This document shows positions 3,355 through 34,354 of a stretch of DNA of 64,000 bases, piece after piece (position 1 is the stretch's first letter; every line of letters begins with the position of its first letter). The notes under the pieces were generated by a model, which had not been told where the DNA came from, ran no database searches, and worked only from the letters and a program-made list of their open reading frames with translations. The translations under genes were made by a program, and so were the position numbers. The DNA lies in IMG/VR virus record IMGVR_UViG_3300021600_000005, positions 26,169-90,168 of that record. One strand, 5' to 3'. This DNA is from a virus.

Positions 3355-4572
3355 TTAATTACTTAAAGGGGCTTTAATTGTTGGGTGTGATTGATAGTTT
3401 ATAAGTTTGAAGTTATCATAAACATATTCATCAAACTTTAAATCAGGATTAGTGACCATAACTAAGGTTGGTAACTTAAATGATTCTCTACTGATTTGTT
3501 CTTTAGCTTGCTCAATATGATTGAGATACAAGTGAGTATCACCTAAGTTTCCAATTAGCTCATCAGGAACCATATTAACTTCTTTAGCAATAATTTCTAA
3601 TAACAATCCATAACTTGCAATGTTAAATGGTAAACCTAAGAATGTATCTACTGAACGTTGATTCCACATTAAAGAGATTGCTCTGGTTGGAATGTTATAA
3701 TCATCAAATAAACTATTCCACCCATTTTCATCCGTTGGGAAAACATCCTTAATCCAAGATGATTTGTCGTAAATGTTTTTACGTTCTTGTGAACTCAACT
3801 CTTTTGTATAAACTTGAAATCCATAATGACAAGGTGGAAGAGTCATTTGGTCTAATTCTCCAACATTCCAGCTTGAAACCATTAATCGTCTTGAGTCTGG
3901 ATTTGTTTTAAGGTCGTTGATTAGATTTGCGATTTGGTCTATTGAATTATTTTGGTGCGTTACTTTAACATCATATTTACTATAATCTCCACCATCACGA
4001 ATTAAGTCCATAACTTTAACTTTGTCAGAACTTTTTACATTTTCTAAATCATAATTTATTACGTTTTTTTTACCCCAACTTCTCCATTGCTTACCATAAA
4101 TTGGACCTAACTCACCCCACTTATTTTCCCATTCTTTATCTGTTTTAATTTTATTGACAAAATCTTCTTTACTATATGGAATCTTAACTTCAGGACTATT
4201 AACATATCTCTTATAAGCATCGCCGTCCCAAATATGACAATCATTATCAACTAAATACTTAATATTAGTATCTCCTTTTAAAAACCATAACAATTCAGTT
4301 ACAATAGTTTTAAATGCCATCTTCTTAGTTGTAAGCAATGGAAATCCTTCACTCATCTTATGACGTATCTGTCTTCCAAAGATACTGATTGTTCCAGTCC
4401 CTGTTCTGTCCGACTTGGTTACTCCATTATCTAAGATGTCTTGGAGTAGGTCTGTGTATTGTTTATCTAATTTATTCATAACTTTTTCTTTTTGTGCGTA
4501 AGATAATACAGATGGCATACCACTATAATGACACCACAACTCACCTAAATTATCTTCATTATCTTCTTTCAT
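3355..4572 (-). CDS. thyA: Thymidylate synthase with N-terminal extension and insertions
   Basis: DRTGTGT, FPLLTTKK, ELLWFL, LPPCH, QRSVD.FLGLPFNIASY, DTHLY; start at 4572 gives an ATGA overlap (alternative start 4479). Confidence 0.95.
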   Translation of the reverse strand: MKEDNEDNLGELWCHYSGMPSVLSYAQKEKVMNKLDKQYTDLLQDILDNGVTKSDRTGTGTISIFGRQIRHKMSEGFPLLTTKKMAFKTIVTELLWFLKGDTNIKYLVDNDCHIWDGDAYKRYVNSPEVKIPYSKEDFVNKIKTDKEWENKWGELGPIYGKQWRSWGKKNVINYDLENVKSSDKVKVMDLIRDGGDYSKYDVKVTHQNNSIDQIANLINDLKTNPDSRRLMVSSWNVGELDQMTLPPCHYGFQVYTKELSSQERKNIYDKSSWIKDVFPTDENGWNSLFDDYNIPTRAISLMWNQRSVDTFLGLPFNIASYGLLLEIIAKEVNMVPDELIGNLGDTHLYLNHIEQAKEQISRESFKLPTLVMVTNPDLKFDEYVYDNFKLINYQSHPTIKAPLSN

Positions 4573-12674: not shown

Positions 12675-13718
12675 ATGAATATTATAATTAAAGAACATCA
12701 ATATTTAAAAATATTAACTGAATCTTTAGGGGTTTCTAGAGCAAGTTTACATTATGTTAATGTGATTTATAAAATATTGGAACCTACGGTCTTAAAATTT
12801 TTAAATTCAAATCGTGATTTAAATGAAAAAATAAATATTGATTTAAATGATTTAAAGGAAGTTTATCAAGATTTTCCTGAAGATTATATTGAATTTCCAA
12901 TTGAACAAATTGTTATTAATCTTAATTGTAAAAAAATAAATAAAATTAATGACAATGCGAATTTTTTTTCTGGGGGAGGGGCTTATAGTATTAGACCAAA
13001 AAAAGAAAAAACAACCCATGTAAAAATTCCATCTAAATTCTTACCAAAATATGTTACAGACGAAATAAATAAAACTATTATTTCTGAGTTTGATTTTACG
13101 GTTACTATATTTAAAAACTATGAAGAAACTAATAAAGACGATTTATTGTTTTTATTACGTGATGCAATATCTCATGAATGTAACCATATGTTTGAGTATT
13201 ATAAAAGAAACGAAAACAATGCTCCCGATGTGGATAACAGATTTACCTGGTCAGGAGTTAAAAATTACAACGTACCTAAAAACATTTGGAATATTTGGGA
13301 ACAATTTACAACAATGCTTTATTTTTCTCAACCACAAGAAATGAATGCTATGACACAAGAAGTTTATAGTGTTAGTTTAAGGAAATCTTTTGAAGAATTT
13401 AAACAAGGTGGTTATTGGCGCTCCGCAATTGTTATGGAAAATTTTGACGCTGACGAATTTATGGACAATTTAGTTAATGAGATTAATAAATATAATCCAG
13501 ACTATATTAAACCTATACTAATAAATTTAAGAAATTGGTTTATAAAAGATTATGTAAATTATGGGGTTTCTGAAAAACTTCCAATAAATCAAAAACTTTT
13601 AAGTAAAAAAGAAATTTTTAGTTTGACAAAATTTTTTGAACCAAGAATACGGTTAGCCGGTAAAAAACTTAAATCTAATTTCATTAGGACTTTTTCTATC
13701 CCTAGAGAATCGATATAA
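12675..13718 (+). CDS. Hypothetical protein with zincin-like HExxH motif
   Basis: ISHECNH...EMNA; TATTTATA upstream. Confidence 0.65.
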   Translation: MNIIIKEHQYLKILTESLGVSRASLHYVNVIYKILEPTVLKFLNSNRDLNEKINIDLNDLKEVYQDFPEDYIEFPIEQIVINLNCKKINKINDNANFFSGGGAYSIRPKKEKTTHVKIPSKFLPKYVTDEINKTIISEFDFTVTIFKNYEETNKDDLLFLLRDAISHECNHMFEYYKRNENNAPDVDNRFTWSGVKNYNVPKNIWNIWEQFTTMLYFSQPQEMNAMTQEVYSVSLRKSFEEFKQGGYWRSAIVMENFDADEFMDNLVNEINKYNPDYIKPILINLRNWFIKDYVNYGVSEKLPINQKLLSKKEIFSLTKFFEPRIRLAGKKLKSNFIRTFSIPRESI

Positions 13719-13724
13719 TGACTG

Positions 13725-13760
13725 GTCAGAAGAAACATTAAATTTTAAGGTATTTATATA
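13725..13760 (+). repeat. Solo copy of the 36-nt repeat, fused to the TATTTATA motif upstream of P3
   Basis: GTCAGAAGAAACATTAAATTTTAAGGTATTTATATA. Confidence 0.75.
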
Positions 13761-13762
13761 AA

Positions 13763-14077
13763 ATGAAAATTAACATAACTAAAACACAAAGAGCAAGATT
13801 GGTTAAGGATTGGTTAAACGATATGTTTTCTGGTGCTGAAATAAAAAATACTGATTATGGTAATTCTTATTATATTAAAAATGAAAAAAACCTTGCTTTT
13901 CAGAATAAAAAAAATAAAGATTTTCGGTTTGATTACGACCTAATTTGGTCATTTTTAGAATCCATTTTTTCACTTGAATATGAAGAACTGCAATCTATCA
14001 CAAAAGACTGGTTGGACGAGACATTAAATTTGAAGGGATATACAACATCTTATTTACGCAACTTATCTTGGACATAG
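13763..14077 (+). CDS. Repeat-spacer-associated small protein, paralog P3
   Basis: Paralog family. Confidence 0.9.
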   Translation: MKINITKTQRARLVKDWLNDMFSGAEIKNTDYGNSYYIKNEKNLAFQNKKNKDFRFDYDLIWSFLESIFSLEYEELQSITKDWLDETLNLKGYTTSYLRNLSWT

Positions 14078-14112
14078 TTGGGCGAGACATTAAATTTGAA
14101 GGTATTTATATA
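14011..14112 (+). CRISPR. CRISPR-like mini-array (36-nt repeat, 30-nt spacer, repeat) overlapping the P3 3' end
   Basis: GTTGGACGAGACATTAAATTTGAAGGGATATACAAC / ATCTTATTTACGCAACTTATCTTGGACATA / GTTGGGCGAGACATTAAATTTGAAGGTATTTATATA. Confidence 0.55.
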
Positions 14113-14114
14113 AA

Positions 14115-14414
14115 ATGAAAATTAACATAACTAAAACACAAAGGGCAAGATTGGTTAAGGATTGGTTAAACGATATGTTTTCTGATACTGAAATAATTGA
14201 TTCTTATTATGTTAAAAATGGAAAAAAAATTGCTTTTCGGGAGAAAGAAAATAAAGAGTTTTGGTTTGATTATGACTTAATTTGGTCATTTTTAGAATCC
14301 ATGTTTTCACTTAAATATAAAGAACTGCAAGCTATTACAGAAGACTGGGTGGATGAAACATTAAATTTTAGGGGTTATACAACTTCGCCTCACATGTATC
14401 TCGAACAACGTTAG
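14115..14414 (+). CDS. Repeat-spacer-associated small protein, paralog P4
   Basis: Paralog family. Confidence 0.9.
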   Translation: MKINITKTQRARLVKDWLNDMFSDTEIIDSYYVKNGKKIAFREKENKEFWFDYDLIWSFLESMFSLKYKELQAITEDWVDETLNFRGYTTSPHMYLEQR

Positions 14415-14449
14415 GTGGATGAAACATTAAATTTGAAAGTAATTATATA
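14348..14449 (+). CRISPR. CRISPR-like mini-array overlapping the P4 3' end
   Basis: GGTGGATGAAACATTAAATTTTAGGGGTTATACAAC / TTCGCCTCACATGTATCTCGAACAACGTTA (30 nt) / GGTGGATGAAACATTAAATTTGAAAGTAATTATATA. Confidence 0.55.
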
Positions 14450-14451
14450 AA

Positions 14452-14757
14452 ATGAAAATTAACATAACAAAAACACAAAGAGCAAGATTGGTTAAGGAAT
14501 GGTTAAACGATATGTTTTCTGATGTTGAAATTATTGGTTCTTTTGATAATAGAGGAGTGACTTATAGTAAAAACGGAGAAAATATTGCTTTCCAGGATAA
14601 AAAAGATAAAGACTTTTGGTTTGATTATGATATAATTTGGTTATTTTTAGAATCTATGTTTTCGCTCGAATATGAAGAACTGCAATCCATTACAGAAGAC
14701 TGGTTGGAAAAAACATTAAATTTGAAAGGTTATAGAACGTCAGGGGCTCCAGTGTAA
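14452..14757 (+). CDS. Repeat-spacer-associated small protein, paralog P5
   Basis: Paralog family. Confidence 0.9.
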   Translation: MKINITKTQRARLVKEWLNDMFSDVEIIGSFDNRGVTYSKNGENIAFQDKKDKDFWFDYDIIWLFLESMFSLEYEELQSITEDWLEKTLNLKGYRTSGAPV

Positions 14758-14804
14758 TTAAACACATTTGTTGGATGAGACATTAAATTTAAGGGACAAA
14801 CAAG
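14703..14804 (+). CRISPR. CRISPR-like mini-array overlapping the P5 3' end
   Basis: GTTGGAAAAAACATTAAATTTGAAAGGTTATAGAAC / GTCAGGGGCTCCAGTGTAATTAAACACATTT (31 nt) / GTTGGATGAGACATTAAATTTAAGGGACAAACAAG. Confidence 0.55.
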
Positions 14805-14916
14805 TATATTAACTGACATTATGTCAGTTTTTTTATGCTTGGTATAATTTTTAATATGTGGGGTTTGTGCTTGACACATTAAAATTAAAAATATATATTT
14901 TAATAAAAAATTATTT

Positions 14917-16788
14917 ATGGGTAAAATTATTGGTATTGATTTAGGAACTACGAATTCGTGTGTTTCTGTAATGGAAAATGGGGAACCTGTTGTTATAACA
15001 AATAACGAAGGAAAAAGAACCACCCCCTCAATTGTTGGTTTTTTAAAAGATGGTGAAAGAAAAATTGGTGACCCGGCAAAAAGACAATCGGTTACAAATC
15101 CAACTAACACTGTTTATTCAATAAAAAGATTTATGGGGTTAAATTTTGACGAATCAAAATCAGAAATTAAAAAAGTACCTTATAAAGTTGTTAAAGGTGA
15201 TAATAATACAACTAGAGTTGATATTGACGGAAAATTATATTCTCCTCAAGAAATTTCATCAGTTATTTTACAAAAAATGAAACAAACTGCTGAAGATTAT
15301 TTAGGTCAAGAAGTGACTGAAGCGGTTATTACAGTTCCGGCTTATTTTAACGACGCTCAACGTCAATCAACAAAAGAAGCCGCAGAAATTGTTGGGTTAA
15401 AAGTTGCTAGAATTATTAATGAGCCTACAGCTGCCGCCTTAGCTTATGGTTTTGACAAAAAAGATAAAGATATGAAAATCGTTGTTTTTGATTGTGGTGG
15501 AGGAACTCACGATGTTTCAGTGTTACAATTAGGAGATGGTATTTTTGAAGTGTTATCTACTGACGGAAATACTCATTTAGGTGGAGATGATTTTGATGAC
15601 GTTATTATTGACTATTTAGTAAAAGAGTTTAAAAAAGATAATGGTATTGACCTTAAAAAAGATTCAATGGCGTTACAACGATTGAGAGAGGCGGCTGAAA
15701 AAGCTAAAATAGAACTTTCTTCGTCGATTTCAACTGAAATTAATTTACCTTACATTATGCCGGTAGACGGTATTCCTAAACATTTGGTTACTAATTTAAC
15801 AAGGTCAAAATTTGAACAATTAGTTAATGATTTAGTTAAAAAAACAATTAACCCATGTAAATCCGCTTTAGAAAAGGCTAAATTAAAAGTATCGGATATT
15901 GATGAAATTATTCTTGTTGGGGGGTCAACTCGTATTCCAGTTATTCAACAAGCGGTGAAAGACTTTTTTGGTAAAGAACCGTCAAAAAGTGTTAATCCTG
16001 ATGAAGTTGTTGCTCTTGGAGCCGCAATTCAAGGGGGAGTATTAGGTGGTGACGTTAAAGATGTTTTATTATTAGATGTTACTCCGTTATCCTTAGGTAT
16101 TGAAACTATGGGAGGTGTTTTTACTAAATTAATAGATTCAAATACAACTATTCCAACCAGACAGTCTCAAGTATTTTCGACAGCTGTTGATAATCAACCA
16201 AGTGTAGAAATACATGTTTTGCAAGGCGAACGTCCAATGTCATCCGATAACAAAACAATTGGAAGATTTCATTTAGATGGACTTCCTCCGGCTCGTAGAG
16301 GAACACCTCAAATTGAAGTGGTTTTTGATATTGACGCTAATGGTATTATAAATGTTTCAGCAATTGATAAAGCGACTGATAAAAAACAATCAATACGTAT
16401 TGAATCATCTACTGGTTTATCAAAAGAAGAAATTCAAAAAATGAAACAAGACGCTGAGTTAAACGCCGAATCAGACAAAAAGAAAAAAGAAGATGTTGAA
16501 ACGTTAAATACTGCGGACAACTTAATGTTTCAAACTGAGAAAACTTTAAATGAAAGTGAAACTAAAATTCCATCGGATAAAAAAACTGAAATTGATAACA
16601 CAATTAAAGAACTAAGACAACATCATTTAGAAAAAAATATTCCAATGGTTGAAAAATTAATGGGTGAACTTAATGAACAAATTCAAAAAGTTGTTAGTGT
16701 GATGTACGAATCAAAAGAACCTCAAGATAATTCCACAGAAAATTCTGGTGAAAACTTAACAGATGTTGAGTTTGAAAACGTTAAATAA
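14917..16788 (+). CDS. dnaK: Molecular chaperone DnaK (Hsp70)
   Basis: [61 protein letters not shown]. Confidence 0.98.
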
Positions 16789-31457: not shown

Positions 31458-32291
31458 ATGGAAAGAAATTATGAATTATTAAAAAGTGTATTATCTGTAG
31501 CAACTCACACTTATCAGGAAGAATTAATGATTAATTTTATTGAAAATTGGTTAGTTGAAAATAATCTACCATATTTTGTTGATGATATGGGGAATATTTA
31601 TGTAACAAAACAAACTGACCAAAATATTAAATTTTTTCCATGTGTTGTCTCTCATACAGATACTGTACATAATATCGACACCATTAACATTCGAGAGACT
31701 ATATTACCAAACACTCAAAATATAATGAAACCATCTTTAAATGCCTTTAATAACGAAGGTAAACCAACTGGGATTGGCGGGGATGATAAATGTGGAGTTT
31801 ACGCTTGTTTAGAATTACTTAAAGAATTACCTAATTTAAAGGCGGCGTTTTTTGTTTCAGAAGAAACTGGGTGTTATGGTTCAAGGTCAGCAAATAAATC
31901 ATTTTTTGAAAATGTTGGTTATGCTATACAGTTTGACGCTCCTGGTAATAGAATGATTACTGAAATCTCTATGGGTACTAGGTTATTTGAACTAAATGGA
32001 GACTTTCATAAAATAACAAGTAATATTTTAAATGAAGAATTTAACGGTACTGGAGAATATGGTTCACATCCATATACCGATATATATGCTTTAAAACATT
32101 TATTTGATTTTTCATGTATTAACATCTCTATTGGGTATTATAGATACCATACAAGAAATGAGTACGTGGTTATTGAAGATGTTTATAACGGTATTAATGT
32201 TGGAAAAAAAATAATTGAAGGACTGTCGTATAAAAAATACAAATATTTACCAGATTCAAATTATTTATTTAATACAAAAAAACAGTTTTAA
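31458..32291 (+). CDS. M20/M28/M42-clan zinc peptidase
   Basis: SHTDTVH, GGDDKCG, SEETG, H near the C-terminus. Confidence 0.85.
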   Translation: MERNYELLKSVLSVATHTYQEELMINFIENWLVENNLPYFVDDMGNIYVTKQTDQNIKFFPCVVSHTDTVHNIDTINIRETILPNTQNIMKPSLNAFNNEGKPTGIGGDDKCGVYACLELLKELPNLKAAFFVSEETGCYGSRSANKSFFENVGYAIQFDAPGNRMITEISMGTRLFELNGDFHKITSNILNEEFNGTGEYGSHPYTDIYALKHLFDFSCINISIGYYRYHTRNEYVVIEDVYNGINVGKKIIEGLSYKKYKYLPDSNYLFNTKKQF

Positions 32292-34354
32292 TCAATCTTT
32301 TTTTTCTTTCTTGTTTTTTTTGGTTTTTCTTCAATTTCATTTTGATTATCAGGCAAAAGTATTTTAACCAAGTTGTTTTCTGAAGTCAAAGAATAGTTAC
32401 CATTTTCGATAATGTTACCTTTAATAATTTCTTCAGATATAAAATCTTCTATTTTATCCTGAATAGCTCTTTTTATTGGTCTTGCACCATATGTTTCATC
32501 AAACCCAACTTCAGAAATTAAATTTAAGACTGTTTCATCAAAAGTTATATTATAATTTAAACCAATTAACCTTTTAGATAGAACATCCAATTCTATAGTT
32601 ACTATTTTTTTAATATCTTCTTTAACCAACGCGTTAAAAATTACTATTTCATCAACTCTATTTAAAAATTCAGGAGAAAAAAAGTTTTTAAGTTCTTTTT
32701 TTAACACATCTCTACGATGTTCTTCTTCAGCATATGAATTATTAATAGTTTTAAATCCAACTCCAGTTCCAAAATCTTGTAATTTTTTTGAACCAATATT
32801 AGAGGTCATAATGATTACACAATTTTTAAAATTAATTTTTTTACCTAAACTATCCGTTAAATGTCCTTCATCTAGTACTTGAAGTAACGTTGAAAAAATA
32901 TCTTTATGGGCTTTTTCAACCTCATCAAATAAAATTACAGAATACGGTCTATTTTTAACTTGTTCAGTTAATTGTCCTCCATCTTCATAACCAACATACC
33001 CACTAGGAGCTCCAATTAATCTTGATATAGTGTGTTTTTCTTGATATTCTGACATATCCACACGAATTAAATTATCTTCACTACCAAACATTTCTTTTGC
33101 TAATTTTTTGGCCAATAACGTTTTACCAACACCTGTTGACCCGAGAAAAATAAAAGAACCAATTGGTTTATTAGGGTCTTTTATACCTAACCTATTTCTT
33201 CTAATTGATTTTGCAACTTTTAATACCGCTTCTTCCTGACCAATAACTTTACCAGATAAATTATCTGCCAATTTTGATAATAAAACTGTTTCGTCAAAAT
33301 TTAATTTTGTAATTGGAATTTTAGTCATATTTGATACGACCTCATAAACCAAGTCAATTGTGATTATTTTCTTTTTTATTAAGAGTTCTTCTTCAAATTT
33401 TTTCTTTTCAGAACTTAATTTATCTAAAATTTTCTTTTCTTTATCTCTAAGATTTGCGGCCTCTTCATAGTTTTGTTTTTTAACAACATCTATTTTTTGT
33501 TGTTTAATTTTTTGCGCCTGTTCTTTCAAATCGTCAATAACAAATGGCATTTTAACTTCAACCTGACTACGAGCTCCAACTTCATCAATAATATCAAATG
33601 CTTTATCTGGGAATTCTCTGTCTGTAATATATCTTTCAGACAAATCAACACATAACGATAAAACTTCATCACTATAGAGTACTTTATGAAAAGTTTCATA
33701 TTTATCCTTAACATTTTTAAGGATTTCTAAGGTTTCTTTTTTACTTGTTGGGTCAATTATTACTTTTTGAAAACGTCTTTCTAATGCTCCATCTTTTTCA
33801 AAGTTTTTTCTATACTCATCTAATGTTGTTGCTCCAACACATTGAATTTCACCTCTAGCTAACGCTGGTTTAAATATATTAGAAGCGTCTAAAGAACCTG
33901 AAGAATTACCGGCTCCAACGATTGTGTGTATTTCATCAATAAAAACAATAATATTAGATTGAGACTGAAGTTCATCTATAATAACTTTCATTCTTTCTTC
34001 AAATTGACCTCTGTATTTAGTTCCGGCAACAATTGAGGTCATATCTAATGAAACTACTCTTTTATCCGCTAAATTTCTTGGACAATCACCATTATATATT
34101 TTTATTGCTAACCCTTCAATAATAGCCGTTTTTCCACTTCCTGGAGCCCCAATAATAATTGGGTTATTTTTTTTACGTCTAGATAAAATTTGAGCAATTC
34201 TCATTATTTCACGTTCACGTCCAATTACCGGGTCAAGTTTACCTTCCTCCGCCAATTTTATTAAATCTCTACTAAAGTTATCTAAAACTGGTGTTGGGGA
34301 GTCAGAATCTTTTTTTGGTTTTTGTTTACCATCATTTTCTACAGAATCGGTCAT
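32288..34354 (-). CDS. clpC: ClpC-like AAA+ ATPase lacking the N-terminal domain
   Basis: LDPVIGR, GAPGSGKT, FIDEIH, GSTGVGKT, DMSEY, LFDEVEKAH, UVR-like YEEAANLRD, GVGF loop, YGARP. Confidence 0.9.
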   Translation of the reverse strand: MTDSVENDGKQKPKKDSDSPTPVLDNFSRDLIKLAEEGKLDPVIGREREIMRIAQILSRRKKNNPIIIGAPGSGKTAIIEGLAIKIYNGDCPRNLADKRVVSLDMTSIVAGTKYRGQFEERMKVIIDELQSQSNIIVFIDEIHTIVGAGNSSGSLDASNIFKPALARGEIQCVGATTLDEYRKNFEKDGALERRFQKVIIDPTSKKETLEILKNVKDKYETFHKVLYSDEVLSLCVDLSERYITDREFPDKAFDIIDEVGARSQVEVKMPFVIDDLKEQAQKIKQQKIDVVKKQNYEEAANLRDKEKKILDKLSSEKKKFEEELLIKKKIITIDLVYEVVSNMTKIPITKLNFDETVLLSKLADNLSGKVIGQEEAVLKVAKSIRRNRLGIKDPNKPIGSFIFLGSTGVGKTLLAKKLAKEMFGSEDNLIRVDMSEYQEKHTISRLIGAPSGYVGYEDGGQLTEQVKNRPYSVILFDEVEKAHKDIFSTLLQVLDEGHLTDSLGKKINFKNCVIIMTSNIGSKKLQDFGTGVGFKTINNSYAEEEHRRDVLKKELKNFFSPEFLNRVDEIVIFNALVKEDIKKIVTIELDVLSKRLIGLNYNITFDETVLNLISEVGFDETYGARPIKRAIQDKIEDFISEEIIKGNIIENGNYSLTSENNLVKILLPDNQNEIEEKPKKTRKKKKID

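Follow-up and report, generated by a model that had tools for sequence, protein, structure and literature searches.

The 64,000-nucleotide stretch of viral DNA analyzed here (the window; bases 26169-90168 of the 90-kb IMG/VR virus record IMGVR_UViG_3300021600_000005, labelled G000 below and estimated to be ~30% complete) carries a family of small phage genes whose 3' ends are built like minimal CRISPR arrays. In these genes a 36-nucleotide repeat that is itself coding is followed by an insert of, in most cases, 30 or 31 nucleotides and then by a further copy of the repeat. The best reading of this arrangement, to which we assign a probability of about 0.58, is an in-frame array of the CRISPR type at which an integrase-type insertion replaces the tail of the encoded protein; the enzyme and the source of the inserts are inferred.

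Three such genes, P3, P4 and P5, lie in tandem (Table 1) and encode paralogs of 99-104 amino acids with 72-75% protein identity to P3. Each ends in a 36-nucleotide repeat encoding (W)LDETLNLKGYTT, an insert of 30, 30 or 31 nucleotides, respectively, and a second copy of the repeat. The gene bodies are 79-92% identical in DNA, and the inserts are mutually unrelated. The original prediction, made from the sequence alone, had described these three units, and on re-reading of the sequence its coordinates and geometry were correct throughout. It had also noted that the inserts are unrelated and that the stop codon changes position, and this is so: in P3 and P4 the stop is a TAG formed by the last two bases of the insert and the G of the next repeat, while in P5 a TAA lies inside the insert. 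Two further statements stand in part. A second repeat copy is present, but it is not of full length where a paralog follows; there only the first ~26 nucleotides are kept, and GTATTTATATAAA and an ATG occupy the place of the 3' end. Likewise, insert length is conserved among P3-P5 but is not perfectly rigid, as the P1 insert has 39 nucleotides. The same insert is 30 nucleotides long in the P1 ortholog of locus L014, so 9 nucleotides were added to the P1 insert later.

The repeat ends are GTTG...CAAC in P3 and P5 and GGTG...AAC in P1, P2 and P4. A 19-nucleotide core of the repeat occurs nine times in the window against 0.17 copies expected, and none of 100 shuffles reached nine. A search of positions 13600-14900 against Rfam gave no match to CRISPR direct repeats (CRISPR-DR) and no other credible match. 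Within the second copies, TAAATTTG fits the Bacteroidota -7 promoter consensus TAnnTTTG, and for this reason the second copies probably serve as promoters of the next paralog. The partial copy ahead of P3 has TAAATTTT in place of the TAAATTTG found in the other copies and is thus probably a weaker promoter box. The hairpin and T-run beyond the last repeat likely represent an intrinsic terminator that closes the cluster. Recoding of TAG as an amino acid in P3 and P4, where the repeat past the TAG is in frame with the first, was considered and rejected, since P1 and P5 end in TAA; in addition, reading past the TAG ends 11 codons later at a TAA just before the next ATG.

Table 1. Repeat-insert-repeat genes of the window and their associated elements (positions are those of the window).
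Feature	Position	Strand	Remarks
Partial repeat copy (first ~26 nt)	13725-13750	+	upstream of P3; followed by GTATTTATATAAA and ATG
P3 gene, 104 aa	13763-14077	+	conserved domain, repeat-encoded WLDETLNLKGYTT, insert-encoded tail SYLRNLSWT
P3 coding repeat, 36 nt (GTTG...CAAC)	14011-14046	+	
P3 insert, 30 nt	14047-14076	+	unique
P3 second repeat copy, 26 nt kept	14077-14102	+	in frame with the first; carries TAAATTTG, ~13 nt ahead of the P4 ATG
P4 gene, 99 aa	14115-14414	+	tail SPHMYLEQR
P4 coding repeat, 36 nt	14348-14383	+	
P4 insert, 30 nt	14384-14413	+	unique
P4 second repeat copy	14414-14439	+	immediately ahead of the P5 start region
P5 gene, 101 aa	14452-14757	+	tail SGAPV; TAA stop within the insert
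P5 coding repeat, 36 nt	14703-14738	+	
P5 insert, 31 nt	14739-14769	+	unique; same insert in L013, distal to another insert
Terminal repeat of the cluster	14770-14805	+	fuller than the internal second copies; 3' third decayed
Hairpin CTGACAT/ATGTCAG, then T-run	14813-14835	+	read from the sequence
P1 gene, 101 aa	816-1121	-	adjoins endolysin gene; repeat 853-888, 39-nt insert 814-852, second copy 778-813
P2 gene, 102 aa	467-775	-	repeat 507-542, insert, then strongly decayed second copy at ~445-476

The geometry of these units is general across the family despite differing repeat sequences. A sixth paralog of 155 amino acids, only 21% identical, is found 21 kb before the start of the window (G000:C1:4665-5132; locus L097:666-1133). 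Its open reading frame (ORF) reads through three identical 36-nucleotide repeats of a different sequence, spaced with a period of 66 nucleotides and followed by a decayed fourth copy at the end, and all three of its inserts are free of stop codons. Loci L009 and L010 (40% protein identity) differ in repeat sequence and keep the 66-nucleotide period exactly. In the sister genome G405 at least 10 genes end in another 36-nucleotide repeat, with inserts of 23-33 nucleotides. In G406 a 293-codon frame stays open across at least 7 in-frame units (L184); its three leading repeats are identical and those farther out progressively decayed. G404 has a comparable open frame of 319 codons. An internal peptide repeat was found in 31 of 146 distant representatives of the family, in every one of the 31 with a period of exactly 22 residues. 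Among 28 inserts, 14 have a length of 30 nucleotides and 7 of 31. The units thus consist of near-identical direct repeats of 36 nucleotides, within the 23-47 nucleotides usual for arrays, and of unique spacers of near-constant length. Array polarity, with uniform repeats at the growing end and degenerate copies at the far one, is evident in the seven units of G406, in the upstream locus of G000 and in the terminal copies of the window, in a form in which true gain of a unit and unequal crossing-over look alike. Since homologs keep the repeat, ~30-nucleotide insert and repeat, the simple duplication of gene ends that the original prediction named as its alternative is excluded. Slippage duplication of whole 66-nucleotide units was also ruled out, because neighboring inserts are never alike in the sixth paralog or in G406. 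As a separate observation, the minus strand of G405 (C1:238754-242671) holds a tandem series of six family members. Five have 148-149 amino acids, and the sixth forms the end of a 507-residue fusion protein; most own a repeat-insert unit, and one 23-nucleotide insert recurs in the array at 31801.

Tails turn over in jumps. Among 112 homologs there are 55 distinct tails, and tail similarity is bimodal: any two tails are the same or unrelated, and practically none fall in between. This pattern shows that tails are replaced rather than mutated away, and it rules out neutral drift of the tails. At 95-98% identity of the gene bodies, tails are already unrelated in 41% of pairs; the same tail is found on diverged bodies in 1-4% of pairs. 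Several loci hold an additional unit next to the gene body. L011, which contains a P4 ortholog, has an extra repeat and a 32-nucleotide insert on the gene side and keeps the old P4 insert distally; L018, which contains an ortholog of a gene in L012, has an extra unit on the gene side with the old insert kept distally; and the same arrangement is seen at the protein level in P0008. The L011 variant is also present in a contig from the lake RNA-library run X15. In another variant from that run, a full repeat stands at the position of the terminal repeat of P5 and is followed by a further insert.

A profile of the subfamily matched 123 metagenome proteins, and a wider profile matched 1693 representatives of clusters built at 50% identity, of which 366 had E <1e-10. 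AlphaFold2 predicts a confident alpha/beta fold for P3 (mean predicted local distance difference test score, pLDDT, 92.5). In this model the last helix ends, and a turn follows, within the repeat-encoded part, and the final strand (residues 94-98) is made of TT and the first residues encoded by the insert. The ~100-residue protein has no nuclease or other family match in Pfam, PHROG or PDB, and its structural relatives are uncharacterized proteins of uncultured freshwater phages only. For the ratio of nonsynonymous to synonymous substitutions (dN/dS), values of 0.08, 0.5 and 0.23 were obtained for the N-terminal part, the gene body and the repeat, respectively. Very short tails of 0-3 residues are depleted (1 observed, ~13 expected), while in-frame stops in the inserts show no clear depletion overall. 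For the genes of the window, the stop codon falls inside the first insert or at its border. We conclude that the selected product is a protein with a variable tail and not a CRISPR RNA (crRNA), because short tails are depleted, the modelled strand uses tail residues, frames stay open through successive units and the repeat RNA is unstructured (see below); an added role at the RNA or DNA level is possible. Three distant paralogs of the same fold in G000 (C1: 9900-10256, 11647-12012 and 15656-16030) have no repeats, so the arrays are confined to one subfamily. These three proteins start with MKYIISE, MKFIITE and MKYIINE, respectively; a start of the form MK-x-I-I-T/S-E is common to many proteins of these phages.

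The repeats resemble those of type VI-B CRISPR arrays in sequence, as the original prediction had pointed out. Reference repeats were taken from the published arrays of Flavobacterium columnare (CRISPR-2) and F. branchiophilum (PMC5395568) and from a sampled Flavobacteriaceae genome (G395); the two published arrays have 36-nucleotide repeats with spacers of 30 and 29-30 nucleotides, respectively (PMC5395568, Table 4). Nine repeat variants from the phages matched the Flavobacteriaceae 36-nucleotide repeats at 20-26 of 36 aligned positions, where true VI-B-type repeats score 28-29 against one another. For eight variants none of 3000 shuffles reached the alignment score, and for the G406 variant 3 of 3000 did. 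In folding, the two groups part. Folding energies of the phage repeats lie between 0 and -2.1 kcal/mol with z-scores above 0, apart from the G406 variant (-5.6 kcal/mol, z -0.28), against -10.1 to -12.2 kcal/mol (z -2.5 to -3.7) for the Flavobacteriaceae VI-B-type repeats. With the phage repeats unfolded, the effector-binding hairpin that defines a Cas13b handle is missing. The length, the ends, the 30-nucleotide spacers and the sequence of VI-B repeats are therefore matched, but their stable terminal stem and internal hairpin are not. A strict VI-B-like repeat pattern was found in 1 of 401 sampled Flavobacteriaceae genomes.

The inserts of the window clade are compositionally foreign: their GC content is 37.7%, compared with 28.0% for the phage, and none of 20,000 resamples reached that value. 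Inserts did not match the rest of the 90-kb record or the complete G405 genome.

From these observations the following model can be proposed. The 3' end of each gene is a minimal repeat-insert array of the CRISPR type that forms part of the reading frame. Its first 36-nucleotide repeat encodes the last helix and turn of a conserved phage domain of ~90 residues, the insert of 30-31 nucleotides supplies the last 4-10 residues and usually the stop codon as well, and the next repeat copy would be a remnant of repeat duplication during insertion. New units would be added beside the gene body by a staggered-cut reaction of the integrase type, in which the 36-nucleotide site is duplicated and ~30 nucleotides of unrelated DNA are inserted. 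The most plausible agent would be host Cas1-Cas2 acting in trans, as on Flavobacterium VI-B arrays that lack Cas1. Older units would be lost or decay distally, and recombination from repeat to repeat would shuffle and delete units. The outcome is wholesale replacement of the C-terminal tail and, in the sister phages, long translated runs of 22-residue units. What the sequences show is the architecture, with its generality, polarity and abrupt turnover, together with the likeness to VI-B repeats and a lack of detectable cas genes; the inserting enzyme, the insert source and the benefit to the phage are what we infer. That spacer capture, by host Cas1-Cas2 or by a phage enzyme, is itself the writing device, placing ~30 nucleotides of foreign DNA in frame into a repeat that is also the end of a protein domain, and so adding cassettes of 10-residue peptides to a large family of small proteins of lake jumbo phages, is a tentative proposal to which we give less than even odds. 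Proteins bearing such cassettes may be virion-packaged or early proteins whose tails would need constant change.

Several results weigh against an insertion of the CRISPR type. No cas gene was found in the window, in agreement with the original prediction; no ORF there exceeds 700 amino acids. Profile searches gave no Cas1 match in the 90-kb record, G404, G405 or G406 and no Cas2 match in the 90-kb record. PADLOC found no cas effector among seven large ORFs of G405, which encode a sheath protein, a portal protein with an intein, PolB, a leucine-rich repeat protein, a protein with GEVED and fibronectin repeats, and two proteins without a family match. As no cas genes were detected, the inserting enzyme is hypothetical. 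Among 185,579 species representatives there was no bacterial array with the 19-nucleotide repeat core; the 76 matches were single and had random flanks. The repeats of two loci in this record differ at 12 of 36 positions, and one sequence-specific integrase may not tolerate such divergence. The inserts of G405 have the same GC content as their phage. Synonymous divergence (dS) in the window clade is 0.70 in the repeat and 0.31 in the body, hence without extra conservation of synonymous sites in the repeat. Exact words of 22-24 nucleotides from four inserts had no match in IMG/VR, and no source was found among the cultured phages of INPHARED. For the three inserts of the sixth paralog, nothing above chance was found in the 401 Flavobacteriaceae genomes (best match 23 of 24, per-genome E 5e-4). 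In sum, the targets or sources that the original prediction had proposed to look for did not appear for the inserts in the phages' own genomes, INPHARED, the IMG/VR words or the 401 Flavobacteriaceae genomes, the whole bacterial collection having been scanned with the repeat core only. Finally, the middle repeat in the two-insert array of L013 is a hybrid, for which the best explanation is that recombination between repeats removed a paralog body, and the apparent proximal gains in L011, L018 and P0008 could be explained by unequal crossing-over between alleles.

The main rival is recombinational shuffling of a pool of cassettes without any CRISPR enzyme, which we consider unlikely. Here the array would be a mosaic at the protein level, with a conserved structural motif of 12 residues and hypervariable loops or tails of 10 residues that the very active homologous recombination of T4-like phages exchanges, duplicates and deletes at the motif. 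Such an origin suits a T4-like phage, accounts for the hybrid repeat of L013 and for the occasional occurrence of one tail on diverged bodies, and is consistent with long arrays that are wholly open reading frames, with repeats that follow the divergence of the protein and with the failure to find cas genes or insert sources in the genomes and databases searched. Recombination clearly acts at these arrays, yet it shuffles inserts and cannot create them, and adjacent units whose repeats are identical at 36 of 36 positions hold unrelated inserts. Nor does it predict an exact unit of 36+30 nucleotides across lineages with different repeats, or a likeness to VI-B repeats beyond chance in every variant. 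Moreover, most second copies lie past the stop codon and some are out of frame, and for that reason are not maintained by selection on the protein. For the in-frame CRISPR-type array, by contrast, the recurring 36+30 unit, the polar arrays in frame and the replaced tails all fit, and of the three options in the original prediction it was the third, a coding repeat acting as an insertion site that varies the tail, that agrees best with the data.

The second option, mini-arrays or crRNA mimics, we regard as improbable. The mRNA would be processed by host Cas13b (or Cas9) into crRNAs directed at competitors or at host transcripts, or into an effector sponge similar to the RNA anti-CRISPRs (Racr). 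The 36/30 geometry, the GTTG...CAAC ends and the VI-B likeness of the repeat are indeed present; phages are known to carry mini-arrays and solitary repeat units, and crRNA-like RNAs of viruses are likewise known (PMC10651486; bioRxiv 10.1101/2024.10.29.618823); and the G405 repeat is extra-conserved at third codon positions (90%, compared with 72% upstream). The stretch is also present in lake RNA libraries, where the evidence consists of assembled contigs alone, from which processed ends, transcript ends, strand and expression level are not readable. What the option requires of the RNA is not seen: the effector-binding hairpin is missing (0 to -2 kcal/mol against -10 to -12), the repeat that Cas13b uses lies 3' of the spacer and in the window that copy is without its last 10 nucleotides, including CAAC, and no target was found in the phages' own genomes, in INPHARED or, for four inserts, in IMG/VR. 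The reading frame, furthermore, is kept through up to 7 units in relatives. A neutral by-product, in which a repeat-like gene end is occasionally struck by off-target spacer integration without benefit to the phage, is very improbable. Off-target integration by Cas1-Cas2 into repeat-like sites is known, and the lack of a clear depletion of in-frame stops would agree with it. However, the design is conserved over a family of 1693 cluster representatives down to 21% protein identity, recurs in at least 10 genes of the G405 genome and is accompanied by selection against very short tails, and long open arrays are common. The remaining option, a miniature RNA-guided system in which a ~100-residue protein takes its guide from its own 3' end in the manner of TnpB, is scarcely credible. 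It draws on an analogy of position, a guide-like element that overlaps an ORF end, whereas the protein is a small alpha/beta fold found in uncultured phage proteins only, with no nuclease match in Pfam, PHROG or PDB; the repeat RNA is unstructured; and distant paralogs of the same fold are wholly without repeats.

The phage itself is a jumbo T4-like phage of lake water. This assignment follows from the T4-type major capsid (gp23), portal (gp20) and terminase proteins encoded in the record and from capsid relatives on sister genomes of jumbo size. Relatives of the capsid protein at 75-86% identity occur on more than 590 IMG/VR contigs; of the sister genomes G404, G405 and G406, two are estimated to be complete (321 and 296 kb; G405 is a complete one) and one of 273 kb is estimated to be 93% complete. 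The window has a GC content of 28%, and 14 freshwater DNA runs from 13 studies contain half or more of the words sampled from the stretch. Two segments of the window match bacterial DNA: ~240 nucleotides at ~4225-4465 match many of the 401 sampled Flavobacteriaceae genomes at ~70-75% DNA identity, and a 99-nucleotide segment at 2962-3060 matches one of them (G388) at 89%. Both probably belong to genes that are highly conserved or came from the host, and they could be of use in placing the host. Directly downstream of the cassette cluster, at 14917-16788, lies a gene for a full-length DnaK (623 amino acids). Just upstream of the cluster, an ORF of 347 amino acids at 12675-13718 has no family match but shows a motif resembling HExxH (SHECNH); its stop codon is followed 7 nucleotides later by the partial repeat copy ahead of P3. 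A ClpB-like double AAA+ protein of 688 amino acids is encoded at 32288-34354. The intein of G405 lies inside its portal gene (G405:C1:162864-165965, equivalent to L210:2864-5965; Intein_splicing and Portal_T4 domains).

If the insertion is indeed CRISPR adaptation, this would be the first case of spacer capture in which the sequence edited codes for a protein and is not an immune memory. Such a process would amount to a natural, site-specific and frame-preserving form of protein variation in phages without cas genes, which would offer their own genes as substrates to the adaptation machinery of the host, and it would bear on the origin of orphan and viral arrays. Arrays translated as protein are described in none of the papers retrieved on mini-arrays and solitary repeat units of phages and on crRNA-like RNAs of viruses. 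In the SRUFinder pipeline, confident ORFs are masked ahead of the search, so units inside ORFs would be skipped; if the insertion is CRISPR adaptation, array finders of this kind would overlook a whole class of arrays. Even under recombination alone the family is unusual, with 1693 cluster representatives, at least 10 copies per genome and a strictly modular, hypervariable tail of 22-residue units in abundant freshwater jumbo phages.

Comparison with known systems shows partial likeness to several. TnpB and other OMEGA systems combine a RuvC-type nuclease with a structured guide scaffold; the genes described here have a 100-residue alpha/beta domain and an unstructured repeat RNA. Diversity-generating retroelements likewise direct variation to the C-terminus of a phage protein and have a second, non-coding repeat copy nearby, but no reverse transcriptase (RVT_1) was found in G000, G404, G405 or G406, and the inserts, instead of being copies of one template mutated at adenines, bear no relation to each other. 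The adhesin gp38 of the T-even phages has hypervariable segments between glycine-rich motifs and is reshuffled by recombination at these motifs. It shares with the present family a T4-like phage background, short conserved motifs flanking short hypervariable peptides and recombination at the motifs; it is a different protein with a different fold, and to our knowledge has no fixed nucleotide period, no exact repeat identity beside unrelated inserts and no untranslated extra copies of a repeat.

The viral mini-arrays, solitary repeat units and Racr elements (PMC10651486) and the viral crRNA-like RNAs (bioRxiv 10.1101/2024.10.29.618823) are also carried by phages, lack cas genes and consist of units resembling host repeats. 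These elements, however, are small non-coding RNAs in which the structure of the repeat is preserved, and they are tuned to a fixed target, whereas the repeat of this family is coding and unstructured and its insert is hypervariable, with at least 55 tails. The VI-B arrays of Flavobacterium have the same 36-nucleotide repeats and 30-nucleotide spacers, the same GTTG start and CAAC end, and a 3' half, TTTGAAGGG(N)AT(N)TACAAC, in common with the phage repeats; their adaptation genes are also not adjacent, and their distal repeats also decay. Unlike them, the phage arrays lie within protein genes, in frame, and are translated; they lack the internal CCCUU/AAGGG hairpin, mostly have 1-2 units, and their repeat sequence drifts along with that of the protein. 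In F. columnare the VI-B array has no cas1 or cas2, and the type II-C machinery fills it in trans, from both host and phage DNA (Hoikkala et al. 2021, PMC8092290). Among known precedents, this one comes nearest to an array whose writing enzymes are encoded elsewhere.

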